Assembly (NCBI GenBank): GCA_973895155.1
Contig: OZ316892.1
Location: 27,738,307-27,802,306 of the forward strand
Reading direction: 5' to 3'
Length of the DNA: 64,000 nucleotides
Origin: Marsupella aquatica
Taxonomy: Eukaryota > Plantae > Marchantiophyta
The position numbers and the translations under genes are program-made. Shown piece after piece: positions 24,201 to 54,983 of this stretch. The notes under the pieces are model-generated. The model saw only the letters and a list, made by a program, of their open reading frames with translations, searched no databases and was not told where the DNA came from. The first letter of the stretch is position 1. Every line of letters starts with the position of its first letter.

Positions 24201-24684
24201 CCCGAAATGTTGTTTTGCAATGGAGGGAACAGCAGCTGTGTTGTAAACTGTGACAACGGAAACATGGAAACAATGGGTCCAAACTCGAGACAACGACGAG
24301 GAGAGAGACAAACTGAAGGAATGATGGCAAAAAGGTCGAAGAATGTCGAAGATTTGGCGTTGTCGAATTCGCTAAAAGCCCGATCTTGTCTGTTAATTTG
24401 CGCTTCGAGTATATGGGATTTACAGGACGTGTAACAATAATCAACTAATTAATTAACCAATTCTCTGCCATAAGTCAATGAAGGTCATATAGCTGTACTT
24501 AATTACTTAGTTGTAGAATTAGTTCGTGGACCCCCTAGCTACATTTTTGAGGCCTTGTTTGAGTAAAAAATGATGTATTTGAGATTAGCTTTAGCTCAAG
24601 TTGTATGAGTCTATTATGGTCCAAAATGATCTGGTAACACACTTTATTATGCTGAGACTAGCTCAATACCTGTGCGTTGCACAA

Positions 24685-25240
24685 AAGAAGTCGTGTCCGC
24701 CAAGATGTCATTGAGAAAAATGATGTAGTGTCAGCCAAGAGGTCGTGGAGAAAAAGATGTAGTGTTGCCTAGGAGGTCGTGGAGAGAAAAGATGTCGAGT
24801 TGCCCAAGAGGTTGTGGAGAGAAAAGATGTCGTGTTGCCCAAGAGGTCGTTGAGAGAAACGATGTCATGTCGCCCAAGAGGTCATTGAGAGTAAAGATGC
24901 CATGTCGCCCAAGAGGTCATTGAGAGAAAAGAAGTTGTGTTGGTCAAGAGGTCGTTGAAAGAAAATATGTAATGTCAACCAAGAGGTCGTGGAGAAAAAA
25001 GATGTCTTGTCGCCCAAGAGGTCATTGAGAAAAAAAGATGTCGTGTCGGCCAAGAAAACGTTAAGAAAAAAAGATGTCGTGTTGGCCAAGAGATCATTGA
25101 ACAAAAAAATGTCATGTTGGCCAAGAAGTCGTTGAGAAAAAAGACGTTGTGTCGGCCAAGATGTCGTTGAGAAAAAAATTGTCATGTTGGCGAAGATGTT
25201 GAGAAAAAAATGTCATGTCGGCCAAGACATCGTTCACAAA
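24685..25240. repeat. ~33-bp minisatellite inside the Helitron
   Basis: Many copies of aagatgtcgtgtcgcccaagaggtcgttgagaaaa, decaying toward ~25800. Confidence 0.9.
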
Positions 25241-26116
25241 AAATACCCATGCATTGCACAAAAGATGTTGTTAAGAAATAAGATGTCGTGTTGCCCAAGA
25301 TGTTGTTAAGTGAAAGATGTCACAAAGTAAAAAGATGTCTTAAGAAAAAGTAGTTTTGCCAAACATGCCATTGTGTGCAAGATGTTATTAAGAAAAAGGT
25401 GTCATTTTGCCAAAGATATCGTGAAGTAAAAGATGTTAAAAAAAATGGTGTTATTTCACCCAAGCTATCGTTCTGTGAAAGATGTTATGAAATAAAAAAA
25501 ATCAAGGAAACTAAGAAGGAGTGAGTCTTTTTCTTTGTTTTGTTTTTTTACCCAAAATGCCTATGCATTTGAATGTCAACCACTATAAATTGGAGCAACG
25601 TTATATTATCGGTTTCAGATTTAGTGTTTTAGGGTTTAGCAAAGATGACCATTCTCTCGATATCCTTTCAATCCCAGTGCGTTGCATAATAGATGTTGTT
25701 TGGTTAAAGATGTTGTTGAGAAATAGATCCTACGTGGTGCAAAAGATAATCGTTGAATAAAAATAATAATTGTTAAAATACATTATTACACAAAAACTTT
25801 TGTTGAGTGAAAGATATCATTGTGCAAAATAGAAATTGGGGTCCATGCAAGATAACTAAAATTTAACTAATTTCCAAAGAGTTAAATCTCCTTTTTAAGA
25901 GCCAAAGCCAAAATAATATAATGTCAACCTACTCTCTTCCCCTTAGTGCTTGCTCCCTACCAAAACCATTATCTCAAGTGAATCTTTTCACTTTCATGCC
26001 CCATGCCAAATGTACTCTAAATTAATAGACCATAAAATAATATACTTACACTTTAATGCTCCATGCCAAAAAGTATTATAAGCAAGCTACAAAATAACTA
26101 CAGTAGCACATGCAAG

Positions 26117-26403: not shown

Positions 26404-27415
26404 CATGCAAGTACTATATGATATATTATATCTACCTTGTACTATAACTTACATACCTACCTTGTACTATAACTTACAGCCAATTTTAGGTTCCCATCTC
26501 ACTCAATCCAAGAGCCATAAATAATTCAAGAAAATATCTCATGGCTTAACTTTGTTTCCTCCTTTTTCATTTTTGTAACGGGACGAAGGACTAAAACTGG
26601 CGGGATTCGTTATTATAGTAGTAGATAGTTACAAGATTTAGTGAAAATATAGGATAAATTACTTTTTCCAAATGTGATTTTGCAATAGTCTTCATAATGA
26701 CCAGTAAAATGAGGGCTTTTAGCTTGAGTTTTGAGAGGCTAAGTAATATGGTTCATAATGCTCTGCTAGGCATTAAAACACTTAAAATATATGAGATATT
26801 TTAGCTAATTTTAGAACATTAATAAACCCAACGAACAAATTTTTTTAGTTAGTTGATTTGGGCATTGAATGACACTATATTAGACCACGGGTCATGGATC
26901 CTTTGAGTTGAGAAAACTACTTTCTCAAGATCAATTGAGAAGACTACTTTTCTCAACAACAAACCCTAAGCTTTCTAGTAGTTGAACCCTGTTAATTTGG
27001 AGAAGATTTGTCAATGTACTTTCAAATAATTGGAAATTCTGGAGATTTCATTGAAGTATGACTTTGGCTAGTTTTGAATTAGAGGTTAATGGCCTCATGA
27101 CTTTGATGCGGCTATTCACCAAACGGAGAAGGGCAAAGCTAGCTTTAAGAAGAGAGAAGTCTGATTAAAAAGGGAAGTTGGTAGTCATGCTGTGTTGAAC
27201 AAGTAGGATATATTTTCTCGCAAAATCATTGTGGACCCATTCAGTGATGGCCTGAGAAGTTTGGCATTTTTTCAACTGCCACATGAATACTTTGCATTGC
27301 AGGCCAAAGTCGACGAAGTGATTTATCACAAGAAGTTGTCAAAATCAGGCCTTTTCGCTACATGCAACCAAATTCTCAAGAGAGTCAATAGTCAATTTGT
27401 GGCAAGTCCATTTGA

Positions 27416-27760
27416 TGTTGAGTATAGACGACATTCGTAACGGCAAGCCCATGAACCATCCAACGCACAATAGTCGACACAGAGAGATACGTGGTTCACC
27501 TCCACATGAGGCTATGTCCACGGGAACACACAAGAGCTTTACTGCACTCTAGACCGACCGGCCATACCAAGCATCCACAGCACAAGCTCTCTCTATCTCT
27601 CAACTAGCTTCGTAACAATGAGCCTAAGTTCCACCAGGGTCTGGCATTAGCCCTGGCTATATGCACAATAGCACTACCGCTAACATTAGCTAAAGTCCTA
27701 ACCCAAGTTAGACTAACTGTGGTTAGCTCATGAGTCACAAGACTAGAGCAATATCTAACA
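27416..27760 (-). repeat. 3' LTR of the Copia element
   Basis: 345 bp, adjacent to a polypurine tract; about 6 substitutions and 2 small indels versus the 5' LTR (by eye). Confidence 0.95.
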
Positions 27761-28034
27761 AACTCCCCCTTGACTCTTGTCTTGGGGACTGGACTAAATG
27801 CTACCATATGGAATCCTCAGCGGGAAGTTCTAGACAATCACCAAACCAGGTCTCCCCCTAAAAACCACAAGGGTTAACTAAAACACAGTGACGGACCAAA
27901 CGAGAAGTGTGACCACACTTCTCGTTTTGCCCGCGGCAAAAAAGGTTTCTAAGGCAAAAAAGTCTTGGATACGGAATTAGTATTCCCACTAAAAACTAGT
28001 TTTTCAAATTGAAAAAATGGGAAAAATTGACACG

Positions 28035-28790
28035 AATACGAAGATGGGATACGGCGTATCCCATTTCGGATCCAACCGCGGAATTCCAAACAAAAAAAAA
28101 ACACAGTAAAGGTGCCGATATTGGTTTACCCGACAAGAATATTCCAAAACGATTCTTCTCAATGGTAACATTTAACCGACTGTGATGCAACTGCAGTCAA
28201 ATACTAACCACGGTCAGTGAGAAAACTATAAATAGGAGATCACCGCTTGAGAATTTTACGCTCATTTTTTCTCGCTCTGTATACTCTTACTCTCGACGAA
28301 TGCACACCGTCTATACAAACTCGTATTCCCCAAAAATCAGTTTTGATGAATATGTGAAAATCTTCCTGAAAATGGCGAGGACGAATCCCAAATGGGATAC
28401 GGCGTATCCCGTTTGGGATTCAACCCTCAAATTTCAAGTTTTCGTTTCACATTAGCTAAAAAAGGAGGTTGGATGCGACATGGGATACCTCTGAATATGA
28501 AGTATCGTAGACTCCAAATGTCAAAACCTCAATGTTGAATGCGAAATGGGATACGGCGTATCCCATTTGGGATTCACTCTTCAAATGTCCAGTTTGATTT
28601 CTCTTTAGCTAAAAAAGGAGGTTGGATGCGAAGTGGGATAAGGGGTATCCCATGTCGCATCCAACCTACGAAAATGAAGCATCTTAGACTCCAAATGTCA
28701 AAACCTCAATGTTGAATGCGAAATGGGATACGGCGTATCCCGTTTGGGATACGGCGTATCCCGTTTGGGATTCACTCTTCAAATGTCCAG
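28035..28790. repeat. Left cluster of TGGGATAC-N3-GTATCCCA palindromes
   Basis: Copies at ~28045, 28393, 28481 (half), 28547, 28634, 28724, 28745; includes a ~177-bp duplicated unit. Confidence 0.9.
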
Positions 28791-28979
28791 TTTTGATTGC
28801 CCATGTGGTATTTACCTAGAGTTTATTTGAATGATGGGAAAAACCTTATGGATTACTGATTGTTTCGCAGGCGAAGTTCAACTGAACTGTACGCACTGAA
28901 GCTCTTGCTGCCTTTCAGTGACCGACACCCACTCAAGCTTAAGCTTTCCTTGAAAAATGAAGTTTTCTCTTGTGAGTCT

Positions 28980-29307
28980 AATGGCGGTCCAGAATCAAAA
29001 CCTTGAGAAACGTGCTCATCGATTGTATAAGCGATTAGTTGCACTCAAAGTTCTTTGTCCTGGATTAGGCGCGCTATGGACGGGAGGCGTGGATCCACAT
29101 GATAGTTTGAATCCACTCCAAATAGAGTTTTGTGAAAAAAATGAGGACGGAGTTCCAATTTGGTCGAGGATATGTTTGAGTGGTTGTCTGCACTCTGTTA
29201 ATTCTTCTTGTAACTATTGTTGTGATGCCCAAAACAAATATCATCGATTGGCATATTTTTGTTGTCGGATTTGGAACGAAGATCCTTGGGTTAACTTATC
29301 GCGTTGA
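28980..29307 (+). CDS. Small Cys-rich hypothetical ORF of the transposon
   Basis: Open frame from ATG 28980 with CLSGCLH...CNYCC...H...FCC; no family recognised. Confidence 0.3.
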
Positions 29308-29483
29308 ATTTTCTTGATTAGTGTGTAAGTGTTTAGGTGAACGTTCTTGGGTCAAACATTTTGTGAAAATATTTTTCTTTTGACCAAAGAAATAAAATCA
29401 GTTTTTCCATCACTGTTTTGTAGGTTGTTGAGAAAGAGCTCACCATCTCATTTATTACTCCAGGTATCCACTCTTATTTTGGA

Positions 29484-30035
29484 ATGGCAGTCACTGAGAG
29501 CCCTGTCTTTACAAGGTTAGCAATGTCATTCGACAAAGAGAAGAAACAAATTCAACAAAAAAGTGGCCAAAGGGAATCCGGATTGCTTTTGGATGGACTT
29601 GTTGACGAGATTGTTGAAACGTTCATTTGGCCCATTTTGAAAGTTTGTTGTATAGAGGATGAGTTTGATTCCTCCAAGAACCAAGCTGATGAAAGATTGA
29701 TGCGATTAAAAACCATGGTGTGGCTTGGATGCACCTCCAAGAAATGGAACCAGCTCGTAATTTGTACACGAGTCTGGGGTATTCTTAGACTAGCAAAAAG
29801 CCAGCTTGAGGAAGTGAATGAAATGCTGACAAGCATTCCCAATGGAAAACCCCTTCAGAATGTTCATATTGAAGCTTTTGTTAGGATGGAAACACCGAAT
29901 CTTCCTCCAATCGATTTCTTAGGTTTATTTTCAAGGTCTGACCTAAATCGATTTCAAGAAGACTGGCACAATCTTGAGAAAGATGAGCAAGCGAGGCTCT
30001 TGGAAATGTATGGGGAAGCTTCTAGTCTGGTTTAG
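29484..30035 (+). CDS. F-box-like cargo ORF (183 aa)
   Basis: LLDGLVDEIVETFIWPIL...LGCTSKKWNQLV resembles the plant F-box consensus L.GLPDE+...L..VSK.W..LV. Confidence 0.55.
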   Translation: MAVTESPVFTRLAMSFDKEKKQIQQKSGQRESGLLLDGLVDEIVETFIWPILKVCCIEDEFDSSKNQADERLMRLKTMVWLGCTSKKWNQLVICTRVWGILRLAKSQLEEVNEMLTSIPNGKPLQNVHIEAFVRMETPNLPPIDFLGLFSRSDLNRFQEDWHNLEKDEQARLLEMYGEASSLV

Positions 30036-30499
30036 AGCCATCTTGAATGGGCTCTTTGTAAAGACTCTTTTTAAGAATATCAACTTAGTTTATTTTGTGG
30101 CACAATTCTGAATGAATAAAGAGTTTTGTGATTACCCTTGCATCAACCTGATTCGCTACGCGTAAAATCTATTTGGTTGAATACAATGACTTGGGGATAT
30201 GCCTTATCTCTAGTCCCATCAAGAGAAAAAAGTATACATAGACATCTGGACTCCAACCCTATGCTTTTGGATACACACTATCGCCTGTGGAAACCTTATC
30301 GCCTGTGGATACGAAGGTGATAAAGTATAAATAGGAGTGCCTGGTCAGAAAAATTACTCTCATTTCTTTTTCTTCTCAACTTTGTTGGCCTCCGCGTTTT
30401 TCTCGGGCCGCAACATCTCTATAGCTTTTCGTATTTGCTCGAATCGAAACCAAAAAATAGGTAAAAACTGAAGAAACTCTCCCCTCCTCGTTTGGTTAA

Positions 30500-31066
30500 T
30501 TGTTGAATCCTGAGAGGGATACGCCGTATCCCCCTTTGTATTCAACTCTATTATTTGGCCTTCTTTTCAATGTTGAATACGGGATGGGATACCGCGTATC
30601 CCATCTCGCATTGAACACCCTCTTTTTAGTCTTCCATCCAAACCTCCTCGCTCTTTTTTGACTTTGAATACGAACTGGGATACCGCATTTCCCATTTCGC
30701 ATTCAACTCCCTCTTTTTTGTGCTTTGCATCAGACTCGAGGCAATTGTTGAGGTTGGATGCGAAGTGGGATACCGCGTATCCCATTTCGTATTCAAGTCC
30801 CTCTTTTTCATTAATTGCATCAGACTCTGGACATTTGTTGTTGTTGGATGCGAAGTGGGATACCGCGTATCCCATTTTGCATTCAACTCCCTCTTTTTCG
30901 TTCTTTGCATCAGACTCTGGACATTTGTTGTTGTTGGATGCGAAGTGGGATACCGCGTATCCCATTTTGCATTCAACTCCCTCTTTTTCGTTCTTTGCAT
31001 CTGACTTGGCAATTGTTGATGTTGGATGCAAAGTGGGATACCGCGTATCCCATCTCGCATTCAACT
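30500..31066. repeat. ~90-bp tandem array, one long palindrome per unit, upstream of the ParB-MTase gene
   Basis: Cores at ~30516, 30585, 30676, 30766, 30856, 30946, 31034; extended palindrome gttggatgcgaagtgggatac-cgc-gtatcccatttcgcattcaac. Confidence 0.95.
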
Positions 31067-31108
31067 ACTTTTGGTCTGGTTCTAAGTGTGTCAATCATTT
31101 TTAGGATC

Positions 31109-34100
31109 ATGTCGAACAAATCAAAGTCGTCTGGTTCGACCCAATCTTCACGGACATCCATTGTCGATGAGATTTGGAAGAAAGACCTTTACACGGAGGA
31201 GAAACTCATGAGAAATAGGTGGTACTTCAGGGATGCTCGGGCGATGGATATTCACAGAGCCTATGAAGGTCCAGCGGTGTTGTTGGTTATAGTTAAGGGT
31301 AAAGACCATTGCCATTATGGATTAGTCGACTCAAAAATAAAATAGCTGAAGAAGATTCCAATGTACCTTTGCATTCTTCCAAACAATGCCTTCACTATAG
31401 TTGTCCTCAACTACGAGAAACTTGATCGGGTCTCGATGAACACATTTCCTGATGACCCGATCTGCCAGCTAATTTCGGAAGTGCCGGAGATTGAGGACTT
31501 TTCTTATTGGTGTTTGAAATTTGTCTTGAAGTCTTGGAGGGTTGTTGAGGATTTTATGAAGGTAGCGTATAGGTCCGTTGTTGGAGCCGACTTTGGCGTC
31601 AAAGAGCGGCCTTTGAAGTTGAAAGTGACGAAGCCTACCGATCCGGCTTCAAAGTCAGGGAAGATGTCTGGAACACCCTCGACAAAGGAGAAATCTGCCA
31701 CAATTTCATTTAAGGAACCGACAAAGAAGAAGCTTGCAGATCAACTCTCCAGGGAAGGTTCTAAAGTAGCGGTGTCAGGAGAAGCTATTGTCAAGAAGAA
31801 ATTGGATCGACGTGACATCTAGAAGCGCGCGCCTTCTGCACCAGGAAGTGTTGTCTCATCTTTGGTCCCACCAATTTCATAGACACCTTCTCAGATTCCT
31901 TCAACTTCGTCAGGTGGGCCTTCTTTATCATCTAGGGGAGCTGTTAAAGAAAAGAAAAATGATTCAACAGATATCACCACAGCTTTGCAGCGGGAAGAGA
32001 CACTTGTGGTTCGTGAAGAAGTGTCTCGGTTGATGGAGACTAAGCGAGTTCAGAAGACAATAGTTATTCTGAAACAACTAACCTGCTTCTTGTTGACGAT
32101 ATTGACGACGAGAACTCAACGTTGGTTCGAACAGTCGATCGGTTGCATGTGGAGAACATCAAGACTTTGATGAAAATGAATCCGATAAATTTCACGACGC
32201 CATTTGTCTTGTTTGTGATCCCCGAAGACTGCCCGACAGTGACAGATTGGGACTCAGAAAAGGCAACAAGCTGGAGATATCAAGTGATTGGAGGTAATCA
32301 CGGTGCTCGGGCTAAGAGAGAATTGTATCAGGCTTATGGGAGAGAGATCTTCAATGAACTCCAAGCTTGGGTGTATGCTGGTCTCACAAGGGAGGACATT
32401 CATAAACTTAGCATCCAACATAATATTGATCAGGAGTACAGGAAAAAAATGAACAACATTGATCAAATCCGAACAATGCATAAGATTTTCCTTGCCAGAG
32501 GAATGGCAAAAACCAAGGAGACTAGAGAAGCGTGTGCGATGGAGGTTTGCCTCGACGGGTTTTTTCCGGGGGACGCCACAAGCCTGAAGAAGCATGAGCC
32601 TCTCTTCCAAATTGCGTTTAGGTCGGGTAAGGTCTGGGAACTCCAAGACCAGATCTTTGAGATGTGGAACAAGTTGGAGATCAAAGGGCAGAATAAGCAG
32701 AAGTCACCGATCAAGAAACTCAAGAAAGGAAAGGGAAAAGCGCAGTCGATTCCAAAAGCTTTGAATAAGCTTGCAGGGGGCCTTAACTTGACACCTTGGA
32801 GAGCAATCCAGGGAATTGAACACGACCAATGTTTGGAGTCCCTTCTTCTCCGAGTGAAGGACCGGATGATCTCTTTGGAGCAGATGGCAAAAGAAGCCGA
32901 GAGTTACAAGAAACTTGTGAAAATCAGCAAGATTTTTGTTTAGTTGTCAGGGCACCCAGACTGGGCGACTTGCAAACGAATGTTTCCGAAAGAAACAGAA
33001 TCTGTCGAGCTTGAAAGATGGAGTGGGAAATTGTCCGATGTGGTATGTTCTCCCCTTCCACTGATTGGACTTTTCTATTTGTTTCGCCATGTTTGGAGGT
33101 TTTCTTTGTGGATTTCTTGTTGGAATGCGAAGTGGGATACGGGGTATCCCATCTCGGATTCACTTGTGCTTATTTGATGTTGGTGATGTTTCAAAGCGGT
33201 TTTTTCTTGGTTGAATGCGAAGTGGGATACGCGGTATCCCATCTCGTATTCACTTGTGGTTATTTGACGTTTGTGATGTTTCAATGTGGTTTTTGCTTGG
33301 TTGAATTTGAAGTAGGATACGCGGTATCCCATCTCGTATTCAATGTGGTTATTTGACGTTTGTGATGTTTCAATGTGGTTTTTGCTTGGTTGAATTCAAA
33401 GTAGGATACGCGGTATCCCACCTCGTATTCAATGTGGTTATTTGACGTTTGTGATGTTTCAATGTGGTTTTTGCTTGGTTGAATTCAAAGTAGGATACGC
33501 GGTATCCCACCTCGTATTCAATGTGGTTATTTGACGTTTGTGATGTTTCAATGTGGTTTTTGCTTGGTCGAATGCGAAGTGGGATACGGGGTATCCCATC
33601 TCGGATTCACTTGTGGTTATTTGATGGTGGTGATGTTTGACTATGGTTTTTGCTTGGTTGAATATGAACTAGGATACGGAGTATCCCATGTCGCATTCGT
33701 CGTCCAGATTTGATTGTTTGAATTCCTAAATGGTTATCTCCCCATTGTCTTTCCTCCAGATTCTTTTAACAAGTTTGCGTTTGCAATTGAAAGCTTCTTC
33801 GAAGAAGAAGAACAAGGATGCAATTGGTGCTGATGCGGTTGAGAAGCCTACGGAGGAGCTGACTTCGAGTGTTATTCCCCCGGGGTTTAAGAATTACGTT
33901 CAAGAAGCGATTGAGAACTACAACCGACGTCGTGGGATTGAAACGGTTGAAGCAGAGTCGAATGACCATCGATGGAAAAACGTTGACGGAAATTTTATCA
34001 CATATACATTGCATTGTGGAGATGTCAGGGCGCTGGATAAGTTTGTAGAGAAAAGGAATTACACACTTGCAATTGCAGACATTCCTTATGGATTCAATGC

Positions 34101-34888
34101 GCCTGGCTCTGAAAATGATGAGGTCCCATTTTTAGAGAGTGATATTGTGGATATGGTGAATTGTTTTGCCAAGGTGACAAGTTCAAAGATGTGGAGATTG
34201 TTGTGATTCACTCTTTGCAGCAAAGTTGGTCTGTGATGAATGCTCTTGGAAAAACTTGTAACGCAGGTGTAGAGGCTGGAATTTGGGAGAAGCCAAATGT
34301 ACATGCTCATCCTTCTGGGAATCGATTGGCTTGGGTATATCGCGAGAGTGATATTATCGCGAGAGTGGTATTAGGACCAGAAACATGTACAATTTTGAAC
34401 ATGATGAGAAAAGGGTAAACATCATAAAAGTCCCTTGTGTTACAAAGAAATGTGTAACACCATTGGGAGAAATAGTGAACCCTTACCAAAAACCGATAGC
34501 TCTAGCAGATTGGTTCGTTCAACATTTTAGTGAAGCAGGGGATTGGGTTGCTGATTTATGTGCGGGGAGTGGTTTGACCTCATGCGCTGCCTTGTTAGGG
34601 AAACGTCCGGTGACAGTCGTGGAGCTCAGTGCAAGCCAGGTGGATTGTATCCGGACCCGACTTGTCACGCTTGATGAATTGTGGGACTTGAATGATGAAG
34701 CAACCGAGGAGGGTACAGGACCCATGAGCTTTGAGGTTCAACCACCTATTGGTGGTACTACGAGCACCCTCACCATTGGAACTTGCATTATTACAACCGC
34801 GGAGGAGAACGACAATGATGAGGATGAAGAGGATGAAGTGGAACATGAAGCTCCGACACTTGATCTTGGCTCATTCCTTGAGGTGTAG
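31109..34888 (+). pseudogene. ParB/Srx-like domain + permuted (beta-class) N6A/N4C DNA methyltransferase; intron 33043-33759; disrupted by stops and frameshifts
   Basis: ParB-like: HVENIK...PFVLFV...YQVIGGNHGARA...LTREDIHKLSIQHN. MTase: LHCGDV, IADIPYG (DPPY-like motif IV), IWEKPN, YQKPIAL...HFSEAGDWVADLCAGSG (motif I). Stops at 31343 and 32941, frameshifts near 31820-32120, 34200, 34340. Confidence 0.82.
33110..33705. repeat. Seven 89-90-bp palindrome-bearing units filling the MTase intron
   Basis: Cores at 33133, 33223, 33313, 33402, 33491, 33580, 33670, between donor GTATGT (33043) and acceptor CAG (33759). Confidence 0.95.
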
Positions 34889-35000
34889 ACTTAAGTTTGA
34901 TTAGTTCTCTCATGTTGTATCTATTGATCCAAACTTGTGAAATATTGAAGAAGATTATGACTGGACTATGTTCTTATTTCACAAAATAATGTCTTTGCAG

Positions 35001-35913
35001 GAACCAAAGGAGGATTTTGTATTGAAACATGTTCTGCATAGATTCTCACACAATCCTTCTAATGGATTTCTTTTGGACAATAAAACATTGAGCCAACTTG
35101 AACCCCGTCAATATTTGGGTGATGAAATAATGGAATTTTACCCACAATTAATAATCAAGAAACATGGAGATCTGGCTCCCTCAGTAAACACATTATCCTC
35201 TTTTTTTACCCTTGGCTTGTTTCAAGGATTGAAACAGAACCAGCTGAGACCTTGTTGGAATCAATTCAAAAGATGCGGAATTATTACAAGCCACCATTTT
35301 CCCAAATTGAGGTCATTCTCATGCCAATTCACATGAGCATGCACTGGAGTCTGGTTGTAATATGTTTGGATCGGATTGAATCTTTGATCAAAATGTATCA
35401 TCTAGACTCTCTCGCCGGTCTACACTCAACCCATGTAATTGGATCAATACTAAGCAGGTACGTATATATTCTATTATATTTTTTCAATTTGAATTTATTT
35501 ATGTGGTACATAAATATAAACACTTTGGACTAAGAACTTTGAATGATAATTTGCAAATATTTTACAATGGAATGGGAATTATTTTTTGGAAAAGTTCCAA
35601 TGGGAGTTGTGGAGATATACAATCCAATGGTAAGGATTTGAAAAGTAATTTCAACTTTTATTTAGTTCAATTATTAAACACTTTGGACTAACTTTAAGAT
35701 TCTTTCTCAGGTACCTCAACAACCAAACAATTCAGATTGTGGTCTATTTGTTCTTCAAAATATGGACGAAATCAGAATTCAATATGGCATATTACACAAT
35801 GCCTTGATGCACAGTCTTTATTTACTGAAAAATGGTACAATTGTAAAAGAGCATGTAACCTTAGAAAATTCATTCGAGATCAAATTCTAAAATTGATGCA
35901 TGTACCTGTTTAA
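35001..35913 (+). pseudogene. Ulp1/C48 SUMO-protease-like domain (3 exons, frameshifted)
   Basis: LEPRQYLGDEIMEFY, PIHMSMHWSLVV, HLDSL, VPQQPNNSDCGLFV supply the His-Asp-Cys triad and oxyanion Gln. Confidence 0.88.
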
Positions 35914-35924
35914 GGACATCAATC

Positions 35925-38900
35925 TCAATCCTCTAAGTGTGCAGAACCTCTCTCTAATATAGCAGACTCTATAATTTTTTTAGTTTTTGCTGCTATTTGA
36001 TTAGTACTTAAAAGCGCAAAGTTGTATGCATACACCGTTGTTGATGATAGAACTAGTTCATCTTGGAGAAGTCGATTAGATATATTATCTTTCTCTGGAA
36101 AATATTTCCCATCAATAGCAGACTCAGCACTTGCCTCAGTTGTGTACCATGTGATTTTGATTCTCTCAGGAATGTCTGCAGTTCTTGTCAAAATCTTTGA
36201 CACCTTTACCATCCAAAACAACTTGCCTTTTGGATCCTTGTGTGCCGCTACACATATCATGGACCACTTATTCTTAACTTCCATATCTCTGAAATCTCCA
36301 AATTCAGCTTGCTTTCGTCGAGGTCCGGAGTACATAATTCTCTGTGGTCCAGCAACTTTGTCAACCAAAGTTGGATCAACACCTTCTTCAACAAGTTCAT
36401 TTCTCACCCTTGGAAGTAGTTGTGCACCTTGATTTTGTTGTGGCCAAACCCACTCAAATAACCACTCACCTTCCTCTAGGTAGTTTTTGATAATATCTTT
36501 TTGTTTCTCAAAAAAACTCATCCACCAAAGTTTATCTTCATTGTCAAAGTAATTGAAACCTTCCTAGATAGCTTTTTCATATTTCACTAGAGTAGTTAAT
36601 GCACCATCTGTATTGGAAGAATCATGGACATCATACCTCTCAACACCTTTTGCTGACTTTAGTGACATTTGTGCAGCAACCCACATTCTTGAAGTTGGAA
36701 TGTATTGACGAACGTCACTGCATCTCCCCAATCCTGGGTCGTGGAAAGATGTTTCCCGTGAAATGTTGTTTCTTCGTTTCCATCCTCCATGACTCGTTTG
36801 AATCTGAATTGCCTTTGAAAAGTTATGAGATTGAGATCTCTCAAGACTCTACTTGAGACTCCCTTCTCATTTGGCTGGTCGTTTTCATTGATAAATTTTC
36901 AAAAATTGGCTACTTCATCCACAAATATGATCAAAGCTTCAGGTGAATATGCTCGTCGAATAATATCCTCAAGAGTCTCCAAGCGAAATGCTTTGTGCTG
37001 GTTTAACCTAGACAAAAATTTACTAAACATCTGATCTATCTGGTCATGTGTATGACCGACCAACAAGAAACCCACTTTAATCTTGTCAAAAATCTTCAAA
37101 TCTACTAACATGTGAAGATAAGCCATCAAGAATTTATTCTTGTTTTCCCGAGTGATATTATCTAATTAAAGATATAATACTCTTGGTAATGTCCCATCCC
37201 ATGTATTCAATACATTTTGAATAACATGTATGGTCAAGTTTGCATCATTATGGATATTGGGATATGTCAAAAATACTTTTGCTACAAGGTTCCTGTTGAA
37301 GATGAGACAACCTACAACATGTATTGGAATGAAATACTTTTCATCCATGTTCTTTGGACAACGAAGAAAATGTGGTAGCTCTGTTTTCTTTTGATCCATA
37401 CCATCTATACAAATACCCAAATACTTGTTGGGCTCATCATAGCATTTTTTACGATGCTTGGCTAACTTCATCATTTCCAATGATTGTACTTTTCGATGCT
37501 CCATAAGGGCATTGATATACTTTCCTGAAATGATACAATAGCAATGAATTAAAAATCAATAACTAAGGATAAACTTTGACAAATATTGAATTACATGTCA
37601 TCAAATTAAAGTTGAAGATTATAGTTAGTGGAACTTACTTTTATCCTCTTCAGTTGTTGCTTTGTCCCGAAGAGCCTTGAATTTAGTACAAGGACCACAA
37701 GTAGAAAATCGACTCCTTTTAGGAATTCGTACATTTGGAAACTTTTTTTTCCAAACACGCAAAAAATAAGAATATATAACTTGTTGTTCTTCTCGCAACA
37801 TTGTTTCAGCTTCAAAGATTCCATGTATCTCTTGCTTTATCCAATTGTCTGGCAAGTGATGAATCTCTTTATGGGGAAGACTATCCATATTTTTTTGGAA
37901 AAAATCTTTCAACCATTCCACCAAGTTTAGAAATGAAGGTGAGTCTTCCTTACAAAAGGTATCTCGTTCAATCCTTGTAAACATGTTTCCATGGATTGTT
38001 GTCAATCTATTATTACCTAAAGAATATAGTTTCTTGAATCCTCCTCTACATATAGGTTGTCCATTTACACTATATCCACGAGAAGTACTACAGTTGTTCA
38101 TGATACAACCTCGTAGCAAAATATTTTTTTGCAAGTGTTTAAGACCAAAATAATACTTGCGTTGTTTTGAGCATTCCTCTAGACCCAGAGACCTCAAGCA
38201 AAACTTGTCACAACAAGGATATTTAAAAATATCTTTAATTTTGCGTTTTTTTAGATTTGCAATGGTAAGTCTATCTTTTCTAATCATCTGATCTCTGATT
38301 TTCTTGCTGGGTCTTGTCACCTCTACTCTATCCTGAATAGTGTCGGGAGAACTTACCCCCCCACTATTTTCTAGTGAATTAGAATTTAAAACAAAAAGAT
38401 CTTCTGTAGAGTTGTTTCCACTCTCCACATTTTCTGTAACTGTTTCATGAACAATCTCACATCCCAGGATCTCTTCAACAACATTTGAGATTACAGCAGT
38501 CTCTCTATCATTTGCAGCCTCCTCTAATCTCTCTTCAGAGTCTTCTGAAAATGTAATAGGTGTTCGGAAATTTCTAGTTTGAAATATTCTAATGATATTC
38601 ACATCTTCAGTCGGAGTACCGCCCACTTGTCTCTGAGACTGTAATCCCAGCCTAGGTGATTCTTCTCGACTTGAGGGCTCATCTTGACCATTGAATAATC
38701 TTTGGACAAGTTTCAATTTAGCATGTACCCTTGAATTTTTGGGCCCTCTCTCCGGCAGCTCACTTCGCAATAATCTCCGAGAAATTTTTTGGACACTAGA
38801 TCTCTTCCCTCTTTCGTTCTGCACTTGCCATCCAATGGAAGATCCAAAAACCTCACACTGCATCCTCGCCAAAGGGCTTCAAAATCCAATGTTGTTAGTT

Positions 38901-39815
38901 TTACCACTCGGTGAAATAACTGATGGGAATACCGATTGGGATCCATGGATCCCAACTCGTATTCGTCCTTCAGGACTTTGAAGTGAAAACTTTCCCACTT
39001 GCTGTTCTGCGTCATGACTTGGTAATTTTCCGTTGCGCAATACGAACTGGGATCCGCGTATCCCATTTCGCATTCCACCATCGGAACTCGGGTTGGAAGT
39101 CCGCAAGACCGGTGACTCGGGCATAGGATTCTGTAAAATACCACGATGGAATACTAAGTGGGATCCATGGATCCCACTTCGTATTTGACCCAAGGAATTT
39201 GGTACTGAAGGAGACGACATAGGCAATTCGTGTTCACCGTTTTTCAACATTTGAGTAGGGAATACCAAGTGGGATCCACGGATCTCACTTGGTATTTGAC
39301 CCACCAAATTTGGCTCCGAGGCTGCCCCTCCCTGCAATTCCGGCACATTTGGACTCCTCATTCGCTCAAACTGTGATTGAACACTGGACACAGCTATCTT
39401 CACTCCCAGAGAACGAGACATTGGAAAAACCAACGGAGATCTTCGGACGGGCCTACATGGTAACGTTGTTCTTGGCATTAAAAACCGGGGCCTTCGCCTT
39501 TGAAGATCTGTCAGGGTTTGCGGTGAACCAAGTGTCTCTGTCGTAGGAACTACATTAGGCTTCTTTACAAGTAGACGTCGTTTAAGAGGTTTACTTGGAG
39601 AGACATATATAGTATGAAATCGGAGCACCCACAACACTCCTACAAGACTCTGAATCAGACTCTGATTTCTCAGATTCTGAGGAAAATGAAATCTCTGGCA
39701 CTACTCTCTGTGAGGTTTGTAATTCATTCATCAAACGAGATGGAATAAATTTTCGAACAACATCTGGCGAAGATGCATCTGAACTGTAAATTGACTCATC
39801 ACTTGAAGACGCCAT
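35925..39815 (-). pseudogene. DDE/D-type transposase (recalled as DUF7869-type, Sola-like motifs) with Cys clusters; intron 37638-37525; several stops and frameshifts
   Basis: CCDKFCL, CRGGFKKLY, FSTCGPC, CIDGMDQKKT.LPHF, LYL*LDNITRENKN, FLLVGHTHDQIDQMFS; lies between the TIRs. Confidence 0.8.
38925..39300. repeat. Four palindrome copies at exact 111-bp spacing within the transposase N-terminal frame
   Basis: tgggatcc-N3-g(g/t)atc(c/t)ca cores at 38937, 39048, 39159, 39270, translated as (G/E)I(R/H)GS(H/Q) repeats. Confidence 0.85.
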
Positions 39816-41048
39816 AGAGAATCAAACAAGGGTTGTATAGGAGTACGTATTCGTATCCAACAGAGAAAATTCAGATTACAATATTCTATGAAAACAACTA
39901 CTCAATACTGAACGAACCTCAAAGTAATCGCGAGAAATGAAGATGAAAAATAGATGCGAGCTCTTCCTTTTATAGTTTTCGGGGGCATTGGACATGTGGC
40001 ATTCCCTAATTGGTCTGTACAAGGGTTTTTTCACGTGAGAGTCTGTCTTTTCAAAGAATGCTGAAATTTAAATTGTAGATTTTCGAGGAAGTCGCCGTGG
40101 ATCCCAGTTGGACTTCAAACTGGAATATCAAGGTATGCCATGCAAAAACTTTTATCCCATCTAGTATTCAACCTTTTAAACCGTATCCCATCTAGTATTC
40201 ATCCTCCTTTATAAAACTTTTATCCCATCTAGTATCCCGATCAGTTTTTGGACTTGCAAAAAAAATGGGATCCATGGATCTCAGTTGGTATTCATGTCGA
40301 AAGATATCCTGATGCAAAGTTGCAAGTGGAAAACATTGAGGTTGAATACGATAGTGGATACTTGGATCCCATCTCGTATTCATCATGCGTTATGGGCTAA
40401 AAATTTTCCGGACATGTCGTCGGGTTAACTTAACTAACTGTGTAGTTCGACTGTAGTCCGCTGTCAGTTTTTGGTAGTTTGCAATTTTACCGCAGTTAAA
40501 AATTCAAATATTTTTAACCCGAGGTTAAATGGAAGCGTCAAGAGAATGATTTGGTGTGGTTTTCGTCCATGTTCAATGGTTGAATCCGAAATGGGATACG
40601 CCGTATCCCATTTTTAGTTTGCCATTTTGATGGCAAAAATGAAATCTTGTGTTTTACTCGTTTTGTTTGACACTCGGATTTAGCTTTTAGAAGGATCACG
40701 TGAAAAGCATTGTTTTTCCAGGTTTTGGAATTTGCACTTTTTTTAGATGAAGTGTATCGGAATTCTGGATTGTGACAGTTCTGTGTTTTTGCGTCGACAA
40801 TATCTCGATATGAAATCCGATGTTGGATGTGATTTTGGATTCATCCTCAAAATAGCGTTTTTGATCTTAATTTTAGTGATTTTTTGCCATTTTTCGCGAA
40901 ATCGAAAACACACTTCTCGTTTGGTGGTCATACTTCTCGTTTGGTCCGTCACTGTGTTCTAAGGGTTAACTAGAACTAAGCCGTAGCCTAATAGGAATGA
41001 GTAATCCATATACAAATAGTCACACATTGCTAAATAACTCTACTTGTA

Positions 41049-41763
41049 CTACAACTGCAAAACCTGCAAAGTAGCACGGTGTCTTGAGAAACTCTCTAAA
41101 GGAATCACTTTGGTAAAGGCATCAGCGAGATTGAGCTTTCCATCAATCTTGACTAGCTCAAAAATTTTATCAGACACTGCTTGCCTAATAAAATGGTACC
41201 TGATATCAATGTGCTTCACCCTGCTATCCATCACCTGGTTAGCAGCCAAGTGAAAAGCACTCTAACTATCACAATTTAGAGTCATTTTGCCATGCTCTAA
41301 ACCCATCTCCGCGATCAACTTATCCAACCAAATTGCTTCCTTTGCTACTTTTGCTGCTGCAACATATTCTGCTTCTGTAGTAGAGTGAGATCTACACTTC
41401 TGCAAAGTAGATTTCCAACTGATACATCCTCTTCCAAGAGTAAAAACAAACCCAATTGTAGACCTCCTTGTATCCAGACAGCCTCCATAGTCAGAATCTA
41501 CATAGCCAACTAATGTTCTATCTGATATGTTATCAAATAGTAATCCATAGTCCTGTGTACCCTTCAGATACCTGAGAATCCACTTCACAGCTTCCCAATG
41601 TACCTTCCCTGGATTTGACATGAATCTGCTAACCTTGTCCATCGATAGGGCCAAGTCAGGCCTAGTACAAGTCATCAAATACATCAGACCTTTCTCCACA
41701 CCTGCCTTCTCATATGGAATCTTAGCCATCAGACCTTTCTCCACAGCATCCGTAGGAGAGAAA
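41049..41763 (-). pseudogene. Copia pol remnant: end of RT + RNase H
   Basis: LMYLMTCTRPDLA, HWEAVKWILRYLKGT, GYVDSDYGG, WKSTLQ...STTEAEYVAA, CDS*SA, RVKHIDIRYHFIR, NLADAFTK. Confidence 0.95.
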
Positions 41764-43725
41764 CTCGGGGGGTTGACTATCAAAAATCTTAGGAATCACG
41801 TGCGATCTAGAATAGGTATTTTTGGCAGATTTTAAATAAATTTTTAAAAAGCGTAGGAGGCAAAAGAAGGTATTATAAACTCATGTTTATAGAATATTCT
41901 TTAATATATACCCTTTATAAAGTAAAATAGGTTATTAATATTGAAAATAGAGAATATTCTTGGAATATTTTCTTTTTAAAATAGGTCTATTTATATTAGG
42001 CTAGGATCGCACATGGTATCCCATAAACTCACGTGGAAAAAATTGCACGGCTGCAAAGCAGCCGTTTACATTCGCGCCTGGCAGGAAGTTAGGGCGCCTA
42101 CAAATGCGCCGGCCGGCGCTGCATAGCCGGTAGCAACAGTCGAGAGCACGGGAATCGAATGACGGGGTATGAGGCGGCCGGGTGTCACACAAAAATTTCA
42201 CACTATAGTAACCTTAAAAACAAAACGCCACCCAAAGCAAAAATGATACTCTTGCCTTGTCATTTGCTTGAGAAGAGTGACCACCGCCGACGGGTAAAGT
42301 TGATGAATTGTGCTGGTACAATCTGCAGCCCCAGCTCAGTGAAAAATTCCGCTGCATCGTGTTCACTCCGCGTCAAGTGCCAATCTTGGGCTCAAAACGA
42401 CCGCCTCGCCGCGGTCAAACTGTTGAGCCATAGTACTTTGCGTTTCTTCCACCGAGTCGGACGTTGTTGTAAAGAAATGAGTTTTGGAGTTAGAATACCT
42501 CACATAGAGTTTCTCACTCTATTAGACATTATTAAAAATTAAATAAAAATAAATAGTGTGACTTTAAATAGTAGTCATTTATAAATTATTAGATATAATA
42601 GACCAAAATCATAGAATAGGTAAAAATAAAATAGTATACCAAAATAATAGTATACCAAATGAGTATAGTAGACCAAATGAGTATAGTAGACCAAATGAGT
42701 ATAGTAGGCCAAGATAATAGAATAGGACAAAAATAAGATAGTGTACCAAAATGACTAGCAAATTGTGGATAGTCCACTTTACAATATAGTGTGCTAAGAT
42801 AGTGGGCAAAAAAGTGGGCTAGCAAATTGTGGATAGTCCACTTTACAAAACAGTGTGCTAAGATAGTGGGCAAAATAAGGGGCTAGCAAATTGTGGATAG
42901 TCCACTTTATAAAATAGTGTGCTAAGATAGTGGGCAAAAAAGTGGGCTAGCAAATTGTGGGTGGTCAACATTTCAAAGTATAAATAGAAGGGAACTTGCT
43001 TCCCATAGAGCATTGTGTTCCCACTATTGAGAGTGGAGTCCATGGTTTGCCGCCGGTTTTCATGATGGAAGGAATTGAGGATTTTTCTTATGGTCATGGA
43101 GGGCTATGCCACCACTTGAGCACCTTAAGTTAAATACTCAAATCTGGCAAGGACGGTTATGTCACCTGTATCAAGGATATATTATCAAAGGTTAACTTGT
43201 ACCTTAGGTTTAGCTATTCCCATAGATTGTGAATGATGTTGCATGGGTTGCCAAGAGTGCATAGATCGTCGGGAGTGGTTGTCAACCCATTTTTGATTAT
43301 ATTACATTGTTTAGATAAAAATGTAATGCGTCAAACGCTTATGTATCAATTTGATATAGATTTTGCCACCATGGTTATGAATTCAAATATTCCACTCATA
43401 TATCCCGTAGTTACTTATGAAGAAGAGTGGGTGTGTACTATCTATATTTTGTATTAGAAAAGATGGATTTGAATCAGGTCCCAAGTCCAATCTTAAATTT
43501 GATGTCTTCCTTGAGTCTAAAGATTATTATGCGAAGGAAGATAGCGTGTAGGAAAATCTTAATAAGAAAGTTTGGAGAAGAGTCGTATAATGTTATAGTA
43601 TCTTCGGAAGAACCTCTAATACTTTACGGGGATCATCCAAGGGGAACTTTAAGTATTTTTGTGCTTGTATAGTTCAGGTGAGTAGTTGTATTTGCACAGG
43701 CAGCAAGGCCCAGTGCCTCTCGAGT
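41764..43725. mobile_element. Insertion beginning with the 26117 MITE family end, replacing Copia gag-PR-IN-RT
   Basis: 41764-42022 is the reverse complement of most of 26117-26403, starting at ctcggggggttgacta; followed by unrelated sequence with 18-bp and ~63-bp tandem repeats (42650-42960); right boundary uncertain. Confidence 0.65.
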
Positions 43726-45120: not shown

Positions 45121-46065
45121 TCTACTATTATAACAACGAATCTTGCCATTTCTGTCCATAGTTTGGTTACAAAAGTAGGGAAGGTTACAAAAGTGAAAAA
45201 AGTAGGGAACCGTGCTCAGCCATTAGATATTTTCTAGAATTGTTGGATTATTGGAGTCTTTTGGATTGAGTGAGATGGGTAAGGTTCTAATTTATAATTC
45301 AAAATAAATATAATATGTAGTAGAGTATTTGAATATGTTATTGTAGTTATATATTGTAGCTTGCTTATAAGTACTTTTTGGCATGGAGCATTAAAGTGAA
45401 AATAGATTATTTTATGGTCTATCTAGAGTACATTTTGGCATGAAAATGAAAATATATTGACTCCATATAATGGTTTTTGTCATGGAGCTACCACTAAGGG
45501 GAAGTACCTAAGTATAGTAGATTGATATTAAATTATTTTGGCTTTTGCTCTTAAAAAAGAGATTTAATTGTTTGGAGGTTAATAGTCTTTTCTTCCCATT
45601 TTTTAACTCTTTTTAATGGTGTTAAAGGGAAGGAAAAGGGCGAAGAGGAATTGACGAGGCACTAAGGGGGCAAGCGGAGAAAGCAAGGAAAGAAAGGGAG
45701 AGGATGGGAGAGGGGGGAAATAGGGAGGCCAGAAAATATTGGGTACAAAATAAATCATGGGTTGAATAGATGTGGTGGTCGTTATCTTGCGACTCTAATT
45801 TCTATGTGCAATGCACTTGTCATTAAACACCACCACAATGACTTTACCTTTACTCTCATCAACGTCTTTTTTTGCCTCAACATCTTTACCTCACTTCCTT
45901 ATCTTTGCCTCTCCTTGACATCTTGCCCTTGCCTCGACATCTTTCACTCACCTCCCTATCTTTTCCACACCTTGACATCTTGCCCTCACCTGAACATCTT
46001 TGTCTTTCCTTGACATATTGCTCTCACCTCAAAATCTTTCATGCAACGCACGGGCATCAGGCTAG
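45121..46065 (+). mobile_element. Non-autonomous Helitron, same family as 24658-26625
   Basis: A|TCTACTATTATAACAACGAAT start; ATGCAACGCACGGGCATCAGGCTAG|T end; shared internal blocks such as gcatggagcattaaagtg. Confidence 0.8.
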
Positions 46066-50364: not shown

Positions 50365-50740
50365 GGAGCCTCGGTCCGAGGCAGGGAAGGAGGTCCGACA
50401 AGGAACGGGGAAGGCAGACCGGGACCATTGCCGTTCGATCAGGGTACCTTGTGTCCGTCTCGGCAGCGGAGGGTCCAGATCTGGAGAAAGGAGCCTCGGT
50501 CCGAGGCATGGAGGAAGGTCTGGCAAGGAACGGGATAGGAATTCCGGGCCCATTGCCGTTCGATCAGAGTACGGTGAGTGTACCGAGGAAGTGGAGGGCC
50601 CAGATCTGGAGAGAGGAGCCTCGGTCCGAGCGAGGCAGGGAGGGAGGTCTGGCAAGGAACGGGAAAGGAAGACCGGGCCCATCCCGTTGCCGTTCGATCA
50701 GGTAAGCTGACGCGTCAGCGAAGGGTCCAGATCTGGTCTC
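50365..50740. repeat. GC-rich ~125-bp tandem repeat (3 copies) upstream of RPL29
   Basis: ggagcctcggtccgag...gcaaggaacggg...ttgccgttcgatcag...ccagatctgg occurs three times. Confidence 0.88.
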
Positions 50741-53334: not shown

Positions 53335-53865
53335 TGCATTTCTAGACAGTCAGTCAATCTAGCTAGTCAGTCGTGAAAAGGTCTCTTGAGTGGACTCCGA
53401 AGTGGTTTGGATGCTGGATCGCTTCGCATCGGTCTCAATTCAGTGGTTGTGGTCTCGCCTCTCTCATCTCAGGGATTGTTCCTTTGTTTGTGGATCGCTA
53501 GACACTGTCAGTCAATCTAGCTCTCTCGCTCGTGTGTTGAATTTGCAGTCAGTCGAGAAATGTTCTCTTAGAGTGGACTCCGACTCCGAAGTGGTTTGGG
53601 TGCCGGATCGCTTCGCATCGTTCTCGATTCAGTGGTTGTGGGGTCTGATCGCCTCTCTCATCTCAGGGATTGTTCCTTTGTTTGTGGATCTTTAGACACT
53701 GTCTGTCAATCTAGCTCTTTCGCTCGTGTGTTGAATTTGCAGTCAGTCGAGAAAAGTTCTCTGGGTGGACTCGGATTGAAGTGGTTTGGGAGCTGGATCG
53801 CTTCGCGTCGTTCTCTATTCAGTGTTTGTGGTCTGATCGTCTCTCTCATTTCAGGGATTGTTACT
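53335..53865. repeat. ~175-bp tandem repeat (3 copies), probably in the 5' leader of the nucleotidyltransferase gene
   Basis: tagaca...gtcaatctagct...gtggactc...gaagtggtttgg...ggatcgcttcgc...ctctctcatctcagggattgtt occurs three times. Confidence 0.9.
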
Positions 53866-54983
53866 TTGTTGGTTGGTCTCGGAAGGGAAGGCCAAAGAAT
53901 TTTCGGCTGGGTGGTGTTGTTCTCGAGAGTTGTTGAGATTTTCGGCTGGGGCCCTTCGGTTTCTTTGAAGATCTTCCATCACTGGGTTTGCTGCGGACGG
54001 GGCTGCGGAGGTAGATTGTACTCTGGCGCTTCGAAATCAGTTGCTGAATGAGGTTTCTGTTGGAGTCAGCATCCCCAACTGCTGCTTAGAGCTCTGCTCA
54101 ATTGATGGTTTTCCTGGCCTAGGAATATATCGCGGAGGACACAGGTAGCTCAGGTATCTTCAACTTGGAACAGAGCATTCCGGATTCCTTCCTCCGCCCG
54201 TCACTGGTTTAACTGTGCTACGTCCGAGGATTAACGCTTGAAAGCACTTCTTACTGAGTTGCCACTACCTGTCCAGAGAGTGACAACCTCAAAGACGATA
54301 GATTAATAAGTTGTTTATAGTATCGAATAATATCAATATAAACTTTGCATTCGGATTTGTGCAATGCCGTCTGATTTCTGAGATGTTATCAATCGATTTC
54401 TATCAATGGCGTTAATGGTTCTCAAATTTCTCTCTATGGCTTGTTCCTGTCAACTTATTCTCAAGTTCTCTCTGTGGTCGATGACGTTTTTCTGGATGGT
54501 CCTCGAATTTCTATCAAAGGTGGTTGTGTGCTACAATTCATTCCTGCCACTCTATTCTTACATCTCCTCTTGAATCTTCGCTTTTGCCAGGATACTCATG
54601 TGGTTGTGATCATGCACCCGCGTCGATGACTTCTTCGAGTCCCCTTCAGGCTTGGTAGTTCAGACGATAAGAGTTGCGTTGAGTTGCATTTAGTGGCAGC
54701 ACCATGACCGAGTGATCGAGGATGGTGATTTGACGATGTGACCGTAAGGCGGAGAAATATGCGGCGGGCCCGCCTGATTCTCATCACACGTTCTGGACAA
54801 AGAAACTGATTTCTCAAAGAGAGGACCCAGTCAGCTGCATTGTCAGGACGAGGAGGTTTGACCACATTTGATAGAGTTGAGATCTCCATTTTGACTTCTG
54901 CAAACGCTCAGCGCCAGTTGGTGGACACTATTATCACACGAGCTTTGTTCTGGGTATGTCTGGTAGCAGCTTGTACGTCATCC

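Follow-up and report, generated by a model that had tools for sequence, protein, structure and literature searches.

The idea that a transposon recognizes its own DNA through a ParB-like accessory protein is already in print for red and brown algae. In the brown alga Ectocarpus, the large (21.5 kb) Sola-type transposon Sola1-1_Ec32 carries a gene that joins a ParB-like part to an N4-cytosine/N6-adenine (N4C/N6A) methyltransferase (MTase) opposite the transposase, and the product of this gene has been suggested to attach to its own element and modify it (PMC12477816). In Bostrychia, the Plavaka PAG2/PAG3 system has inverted-repeat tandem arrays beside a ParB-like accessory gene, and these arrays are proposed binding sites (10.1101/2025.02.11.637652). 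In Arabidopsis, the VANC/VANDAL system has a family-specific short motif that is dense in introns, intergenic regions, and terminal regions and has been amplified in tandem (PMC5735166); ParB accessory proteins have been put forward as a second class, the Ectocarpus paper being among the proposers (PMC12477816). Bacterial ParB/parS, Noc/NBS, and KorB combine a ParB-CTPase fold and a following helical domain with palindromic sites, and ParB-N6_N4_Mtase fusions are frequent in phages (PMC12704722). Clades of ParB-linked methylases occur in chlorophytes, chytrids, and haptophytes, and few N6A-MTases are reported from land plants (Iyer 2016, PMC4738411). We analyzed 64 kb of the liverwort Marsupella aquatica (contig OZ316892.1, positions 27,738,307 to 27,802,306; this whole stretch is called the window), which holds a cut-and-paste transposon (Table 1) with palindromes dispersed through it and a gene, here called ParB-MTase, that fuses a ParB-fold part to an amino-methyltransferase. 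This fusion is probably the binder of the palindromes. That they are sites bound by the element's own ParB-MTase, which would mark the family and keep the element active, is the reading we tentatively favor.

The set of palindromes is real and not a product of chance. Scanning the window for the core, TGGGATAC-N3-GTATCCCA, with at most 2 mismatches returns 21 matches, all within 28045-40610, and 100 shuffled sequences return a mean of 0.02 matches (maximum, 1) to the same 19-bp core. Six more palindromes with a 2-bp center and arms GGATCC/GGATAC lie at 38937, 39048, 39159, 39270, 40266, and 40354. The full palindromes thus number 27, with half-sites besides, so that the roughly 28 copies of the initial annotation were nearly right, although not exact. 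The complete site is about 43 to 45 bp long, as expected from the earlier extension of the core to an imperfect palindrome of about 45 bp, and consists of four hexamers: a 12-bp direct repeat, GRATNC-N6-GGATMC, makes up each arm, and the two arms stand head-to-head with 2 or 3 bases between them. Within the element there are 42 occurrences of the 12-bp dyad GRATNC-N6-GRATNC, against none in the remaining 51 kb of the window, confirming within these 64 kb the confinement to the transposon that had been claimed. A stricter half-site pattern occurs 37 times in the element, nowhere else in the window, and nowhere in 1.17 Mb of unrelated viral loci.

The palindromes consist of well-kept and free positions. 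Over 10 array-by-arm classes, the inner GATAC/GATCC positions hold 1.2 to 2.0 bits of information and the outer G-R-A-T-N-C positions 1.1 to 1.9 bits, the N holding only 0.23 bits; no part of GRATNC/GGATMC is better kept than its central AT. Agreement between the arms of one palindrome is 0.90 at core positions and 0.61 at free positions, and free positions agree at 0.50 between arrays. Because the arms agree at the core but much less at the free positions, the symmetry is that of a consensus rather than of full arm pairing, as would be expected of a protein-binding site more than of a hairpin. Among copies of the family, 1 of 40 variant places at the left end falls in motif spans, against 10.3 expected (best 40 of 185 rows), and at this single place the consensus base is the one found in the other copies. 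In two loose-end strings before 28046, GAATCC stands at the offset of the window's first copy but with different flanks, which suggests that diverged subfamilies exist.

Spacers are related within arrays (z of 7 and 10) and unrelated between the two main arrays (mean z of 0.11, maximum of 0.72, 30 pairs). Fixed and free positions, unrelated spacers, and the scarcity of motif variants together show a site that behaves like a binding consensus, and to this extent they support the earlier reading. A hairpin-prone palindrome that lacks a reader and multiplied through slippage and gene conversion would account for the two arrays, which are plain tandem repeats, for the folding of single strands at -12 to -15 kcal/mol, and for some kinship between left-end and upstream-array spacers (maximum z of 4.4), but such an origin is at odds with free positions that do not pair between arms, with cores kept amid unrelated spacers, with variant places that avoid the motif, and with copies that persist inside a coding frame, and we judge it highly improbable. 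Within that frame, the transposase units are 0.69 to 0.88 identical in the motif versus 0.36 to 0.48 in the spacers.

The distances between neighboring palindromes are less regular than their sequence. Fourteen of the 26 intervals measure 87 to 91 bp, but 11 of these sit in the two tandem arrays, whose units are mutual copies (by TRF) and whose intervals are therefore not independent. The remaining three are 87 and 90 bp at the left end and 88 bp at the right end, and since the same distance recurs at both ends, a preference for about 90 bp is plausible. The period is not obligatory, because the spacing in the transposase array is 111 bp (three times) and other intervals, among them 21, 70, 154, 238, and 348 bp, span 21 to 348 bp. 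Thus, the claim that the spacers differ between arrays with palindrome and 88- to 91-bp period retained stands for the spacers and the cores but only in part for the period, and the phasing at about 90 bp stands for just over half of the intervals. A strict nucleosome-linked period was rejected, and the suggested half-nucleosome phasing finds no support.

Most of the sites lie outside coding sequence and away from the termini. Both extremities hold palindromes, one on the far left and 3 on the right. Five follow the first TATA-like box, the ParB-MTase gene has 7 ahead of its ATG and 7 within its intron, and the transposase frame contains 4; these locations match those first noted (both ends, upstream regions of cargo genes, the MTase intron, and the transposase frame). 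In all, 23 of the 27 are outside coding frames, 12 sit just behind TATA-like boxes, and 4 are upstream of predicted promoters at the element ends; introns and TATA-like boxes are predictions from GT/AG and TATA-like signals. The three TATA-like boxes (28215-28300, 30315-30375, and about 39970 on the minus strand) have a common context, and both plus-strand boxes read TATAAATAGGAG followed by a similar pyrimidine-rich stretch.

The terminal inverted repeats (TIRs) carry a different repeated motif, AAACGAGAAGT, in exactly two copies per end, which is likely the site of the transposase; a second binder is therefore indicated for the palindrome. If the transposase bound the palindromes, using them at subterminal or internal positions in transposition or self-activation, this would agree with the presence of sites near both ends and with the sequence-specific hypomethylation and own-family activation that transposases and TnpA cause (10.64898/2026.08.24.746577). 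Such binding sits poorly with the separate TIR motif and with the 18 of 27 palindromes that lie more than 1.5 kb from both ends, of which 14 are inside or ahead of the ParB-MTase gene, and is in our view quite unlikely.

The element encodes a protein with a modeled ParB-CTPase fold. The structure model of the ParB part (pLDDT, 87.7) matches Noc/ParB in Foldseek at an E value of 3.8e-6, with 14 matches to Noc/ParB/KorB at E values of 0.001 or less, and aligns structurally with 7bm8 at a Z score of 10.8 (root mean square deviation [rmsd], 2.3; 100 residues aligned). VIA alignments give Z scores of 9.8 over 200 residues for KorB and 8.8 over 185 residues for Caulobacter ParB, and the Noc/ParB/KorB alignments cover both the N-terminal and the helical domains. 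The assignment rests on structure because Pfam calls ParB in none of 34 family members and a word-indexed protein search with the ParB frame returned nothing. At the sequence level, the frame at 32044-32940 has 154 relatives at E values of 0.001 or less; of the named ones among the 30 looked up, those from Chara, Riccia, Adiantum, and Ginkgo score best, and Haliotis, Branchiostoma, Ptychodera, and Clastostelium show that the family extends to marine invertebrates and an amoebozoan. In the Atlas, the ParB frame adjoins fungal DUF3723 clusters (0.96; 178 of 256 features), a hint that DUF3723 is ParB-like. The N-terminal domain of about 170 residues (31109-31620, plus strand) has no significant match among the fetched proteins; it is possible that it is a chromatin- or DNA-reading module.

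The nucleotide pocket of the ParB part appears altered. Box II, GxxR, reads G84-N-H-G87 here, and position 87 is S in 74, T in 17, G in 11, C in 6, and L in 6 of 130 aligned rows (register by eye). Other pocket residues are kept (R29 in 84 of 92, H86 in 117 of 130, and N127 in 126 of 130), so that a changed nucleotide pocket may remain. The Box II arginine is needed for nucleotide binding in tested ParB-fold proteins (PMC12704722). With this canonical arginine missing, CTP-driven sliding is doubtful, and the CTP-loaded, parS-like mechanism of the initial annotation is not supported, whereas its element-encoded ParB-MTase is borne out by both the fold and the enzyme class.

The second part of the protein belongs to the beta class of amino-methyltransferases. 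DIPY stands N-terminal to the S-adenosylmethionine motif DLCAGSG, which is the beta-class order, and the best solved relatives are beta-class N6-adenine enzymes (DpnA-type, E value of 3e-10; M.RsrI; CcrM). All 30 pattern matches among the fetched proteins have a D-initial catalytic word, DPPY in 12 of them and SPPY in none; DPPY is found in bacterial N6A enzymes and SPPY in N4C enzymes, and the domain type alone leaves the specificity unfixed (PMC8885841). In a deeper clade of metagenome proteins (P0076, P0166, P0167, P0173, and P0175), a canonical DPPY follows the same ParB-like part. Five Logan relatives (P0002, P0005, P0009, P0011, and P0012) end just past the point that matches, by eye, the donor of the intron at 33043-33759, which suggests a common intron position among them. 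As target sequences, GATC was rejected, being present in 9 of 50 arms and at a density of 4.05 versus 3.67 per kb, as was GANTC, present in 7 of 50 arms; the former count leaves the GATC variant, proposed earlier as a methylation target, without support.

The composition of the element changes with distance from the palindromes. Outside the motifs, the CpG/GpC ratio is 1.09 within 100 bp and 1.20 within 300 bp and then 0.78, 0.71, 0.72, and 0.52, the lowest value lying beyond 1.5 kb. In coding DNA alone, the ratio drops with distance from 1.24 to 0.52, and the median for windows outside the element is 0.69, with only 3 of these 50 windows reaching 1.1 or more. A Fisher test of near against far gives P = 0.001, although the gradient is borderline under the circular-shift control described below; it fits, weakly, long-term protection from 5-methylcytosine (5mC) near the sites.

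These observations can be assembled into a mechanism. ParB-MTase would bind the dyads, a dimer on the head-to-head arms, and so recognize its own transposon family. It would then add N6-methyladenine (6mA) at or near the sites, as the MTase class and the best-kept central AT suggest, and the marked promoters would stay active against host silencing in the manner of VANC. Tandem duplication would multiply the sites, and selection on the site would retain the arrays, as for VANC targets. We consider it rather unlikely, but worth stating, that transposons of land plants and charophytes have a self-recognition system of bacterial style in which a ParB-derived reader on family palindromes writes a heritable 6mA self mark that blocks 5mC silencing by the host, with reader and site coevolving between families; if so, it would be the first case in which a transposon is shown to oppose silencing by writing its own DNA modification.

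The same ParB-fold binder could instead be a KorB-like autoregulator that represses or organizes the element from dispersed operators, with methylation secondary or lost. KorB uses dispersed palindromic operators and, with a PDB title of transcriptional repressor, is among the longest structural matches; the sites just behind TATA-like boxes and the several long relatives with no PF01555 match (10 of 37 longer relatives have one) point the same way, but this copy and the Chara, Ginkgo, Riccia, and Adiantum proteins retain the MTase motifs, and CpG retention near the sites fits (weakly) an active state, leaving autoregulation unlikely. As to other binders, the Cys/His-rich frame has no assigned function and the N-terminal domain no relative among the fetched proteins, so that either of these, the latter apart from ParB, might bind the palindromes, as might a host transcription factor; however, the Pfam scan detected no DNA-binding family in those frames, and a host factor would not usually lack sites throughout 51 kb of host DNA. 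We regard binding by any of them as improbable.

Several points count against site recognition and adenine methylation by ParB-MTase. Folded alone, the helical domain has ParB/Noc chains at Foldseek ranks 1 to 12, all of them weak (E values of 1.7 or more), and its Z scores of 5.2 to 5.7 include no significant match (KorB DNA-binding domain: Z of 5.2, rmsd of 4.1, 109 of 114 residues aligned). In 102 of the 130 rows, S, T, or G stands in place of the Box II arginine, in the same by-eye register. The catalytic word is DIPY, not DPPY, and varies further among relatives (DFPC in 6, DIPH in 2), and N6_N4 domains have switched repeatedly between 6mA and N4-methylcytosine (PMC8885841). Core and free positions were defined on the same data in which they were then compared, and in the variant test, which covers the best rows only, cross-mapping from other motif copies may mask variants. 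A circular-shift control of the CpG gradient is borderline (14 of 250, P = 0.056), and promoters and gene origin confound the gradient. Of nine loose-end strings checked, eight are missing from the window, so that palindrome copies may exist outside the family; no related locus came with DNA context in which changes of motif and protein could be compared; and transposases and their derivatives are capable of the same anti-silencing job.

Searches for relatives of the locus were otherwise negative. A metagenome search with the motif pattern found no related locus, and eukaryotic relatives were absent from 130 stretches found with ParB-MTase patterns and from the viral contig searches (0 of 33, 0 of 41, 0 of 4, and 0 of 74); a search of prokaryote genomes gave 0 relatives in 139. 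Among the 40 rows listed, phage and plasmid matches cover the MTase part only, at 23 to 37% identity, and 80 viral loci that match this part only contain no half-sites in 1.17 Mb. Eight viral stretches contain the exact 19-mer in one copy each, which we take as chance.

Table 1. Features of the Marsupella transposon, with positions in the 64-kb window
Feature	Position	Strand	Remarks
Left 4-bp target site duplication (TSD), CTAA	27878..27881	.	Right copy at 40959-40962
Cut-and-paste DNA transposon, 13,077 bp	27882..40958	.	27-bp identical TIRs; CTAA on both sides
Left TIR	27882..27927	+	Own motif AAACGAGAAGT twice, as inverted pair; differs from palindrome
Single palindrome near left end	28033..28075	.	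Upstream of TATA-like box at 28227
Five palindromes and one half-site	28381..28775	.	Behind first TATA-like box, in predicted 5' leader or intron; intervals of 154, 87, 90, and 21 bp
Cys/His-rich open frame	28957..29307	+	No relative among 5 candidates in near-length search
Open frame, weakly F-box-like	29487..30035	+	Atlas 0.91 (113 of 256 features shared), recognition below threshold; no Pfam match
Seven palindromes, 90-bp tandem array	30503..31064	.	In predicted 5'-untranslated-region intron (30461-31104) of ParB-MTase; TATA-like box at 30326
ParB-MTase exon 1: N-terminal domain, ParB-fold domain, helical domain (32044-32940)	31109..33042	+	In-frame stops in this copy
Predicted phase-0 intron with seven palindromes, 89- to 90-bp tandem array	33043..33759	+	GT/AG; TRF
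ParB-MTase exon 2: beta-class amino-methyltransferase	33760..34888	+	DIPY, then NPYQKP, then AGSG; PF01555, E value of 3e-6; frameshifted in this copy
Ulp1-type SUMO protease frame	35126..35890	+	PF02902, E value of 5e-9
DUF7869 (Sola-like) transposase	35925..39815	-	PF25273, E values of 2e-28 and 1e-7; broken in this copy
Four palindromes with 2-bp center, 111-bp (37-codon) spacing	38925..39299	.	In transposase N-terminal frame
Three palindromes (40266, 40354, 40592) and several half-sites	40095..40622	.	Upstream of transposase TATA-like box (about 39970, minus strand)
Right TIR	40912..40958	-	Same terminal motif twice, as direct pair

The limits of the transposon are fixed by contigs of sequencing runs as well as by its repeats. 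The joint of the empty site, 27877 to 40959, is present in contigs of 4 of 4 runs, and the 4-bp TSD that it gives led us to reject a 9- or 11-bp Mutator-type TSD suggested by the flanks when judged by eye. In 2 of 4 runs, contigs start at the left end and differ in their flanks at 27881/27882; the element therefore belongs to a multicopy family. The window holds no second piece of the element, and the depth in motif bins (18, 37, 32, and 84 element equivalents in the four runs versus 27 expected) is not a copy number and was not used as evidence. The insertion site is a high-copy stretch resembling a long terminal repeat retroelement; the flanks (27034-27881 and 40959-41800) have very high depth and are CpG depleted (observed/expected ratio of 0.27 to 0.45), and a frame at 41262-41795 was labeled by eye as a copia-like RNase H, with no Pfam match. 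Tandem arrays outside the element (24683-25498, 42593-42960, 45872-46040, 50365-50682, and 53393-53870) are unrelated to the palindrome.

The Sola superfamily has 4-bp TSDs and TIRs (PMC10741241), and Sola1 has a DDD transposase and an AWWT target preference (PMC3845634). The Marsupella element shares the first two features with its CTAA duplication and 27-bp TIRs, but this sole TSD is not AWWT, and the transposase matches DUF7869. DUF7869 is a family that we take to be linked to Sola1. The beta-rich stretch at the C terminus of the transposase (35925-36300, minus strand) may be BAH/Tudor-like, judging by eye. It is a speculation that the F-box-like cargo and the Ulp1 protease act on silencing proteins of the host ubiquitin/SUMO systems.

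The literature search, which did not extend to the supplementary files of the Ectocarpus and Bostrychia papers, where repeat sequences may be given, returned no description of the element or of its motif in land plants. What is new is the land-plant setting, the anatomy of the site, and the borderline footprint of CpG retention. With a defined candidate site (GRATNC-N6-GGATMC, head-to-head), a candidate protein for both reading and writing it, and a multicopy family represented in public runs, the proposal can be tested directly. If it is true, plant chromatin would contain a sequence-specific adenine writer, and the ParB fold would have a new role.

Of the described systems, Sola1-1_Ec32 has the same gene arrangement: compared by description, both elements carry a ParB-like/amino-MTase fusion inside the TIRs and opposite the transposase. 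They differ in host, and the main text of the Ectocarpus report contains neither "palindrom" nor "subterminal" and thus gives no description of a site (PMC12477816). The Bostrychia elements differ in having an EnSpm/Plavaka transposase, a ParB part fused to a 2-oxoglutarate (2OG) oxygenase, and a methylase in a separate SET fusion; their arrays adjoin PAG3, whereas the Marsupella arrays occur throughout the element and even within the transposase frame (10.1101/2025.02.11.637652). Unlike bacterial ParB, the Marsupella protein has no GxxR arginine and comes from an intron-bearing eukaryotic gene, and a profile scan of 16 frames, 15 of them inside the element, found no ParA family. The ParABS fold is thus present, with two of the features of that system (the GxxR arginine and ParA) missing, and the site is about 43 bp with four hexamers, versus 16 bp in the bacterial systems. 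The earlier comparison with VANDAL/VANC target arrays is borne out in layout (23 of 27 sites noncoding, two tandem arrays, and none outside the element in the window) but not in membership, since the scanned frames contain no VANC-type Pfam family, that is, as we assume, DUF1985/DUF287. The Marsupella element is also unlike the Mutator-like VANDAL in its 4-bp TSD, its DUF7869 transposase, and its candidate reader with a ParB fold. The VANC21 motif is a 9-bp word in one orientation, in contrast to the four-hexamer palindrome of Marsupella, and VANC binding and hypomethylation were shown experimentally (PMC5735166), whereas we infer their Marsupella counterparts.

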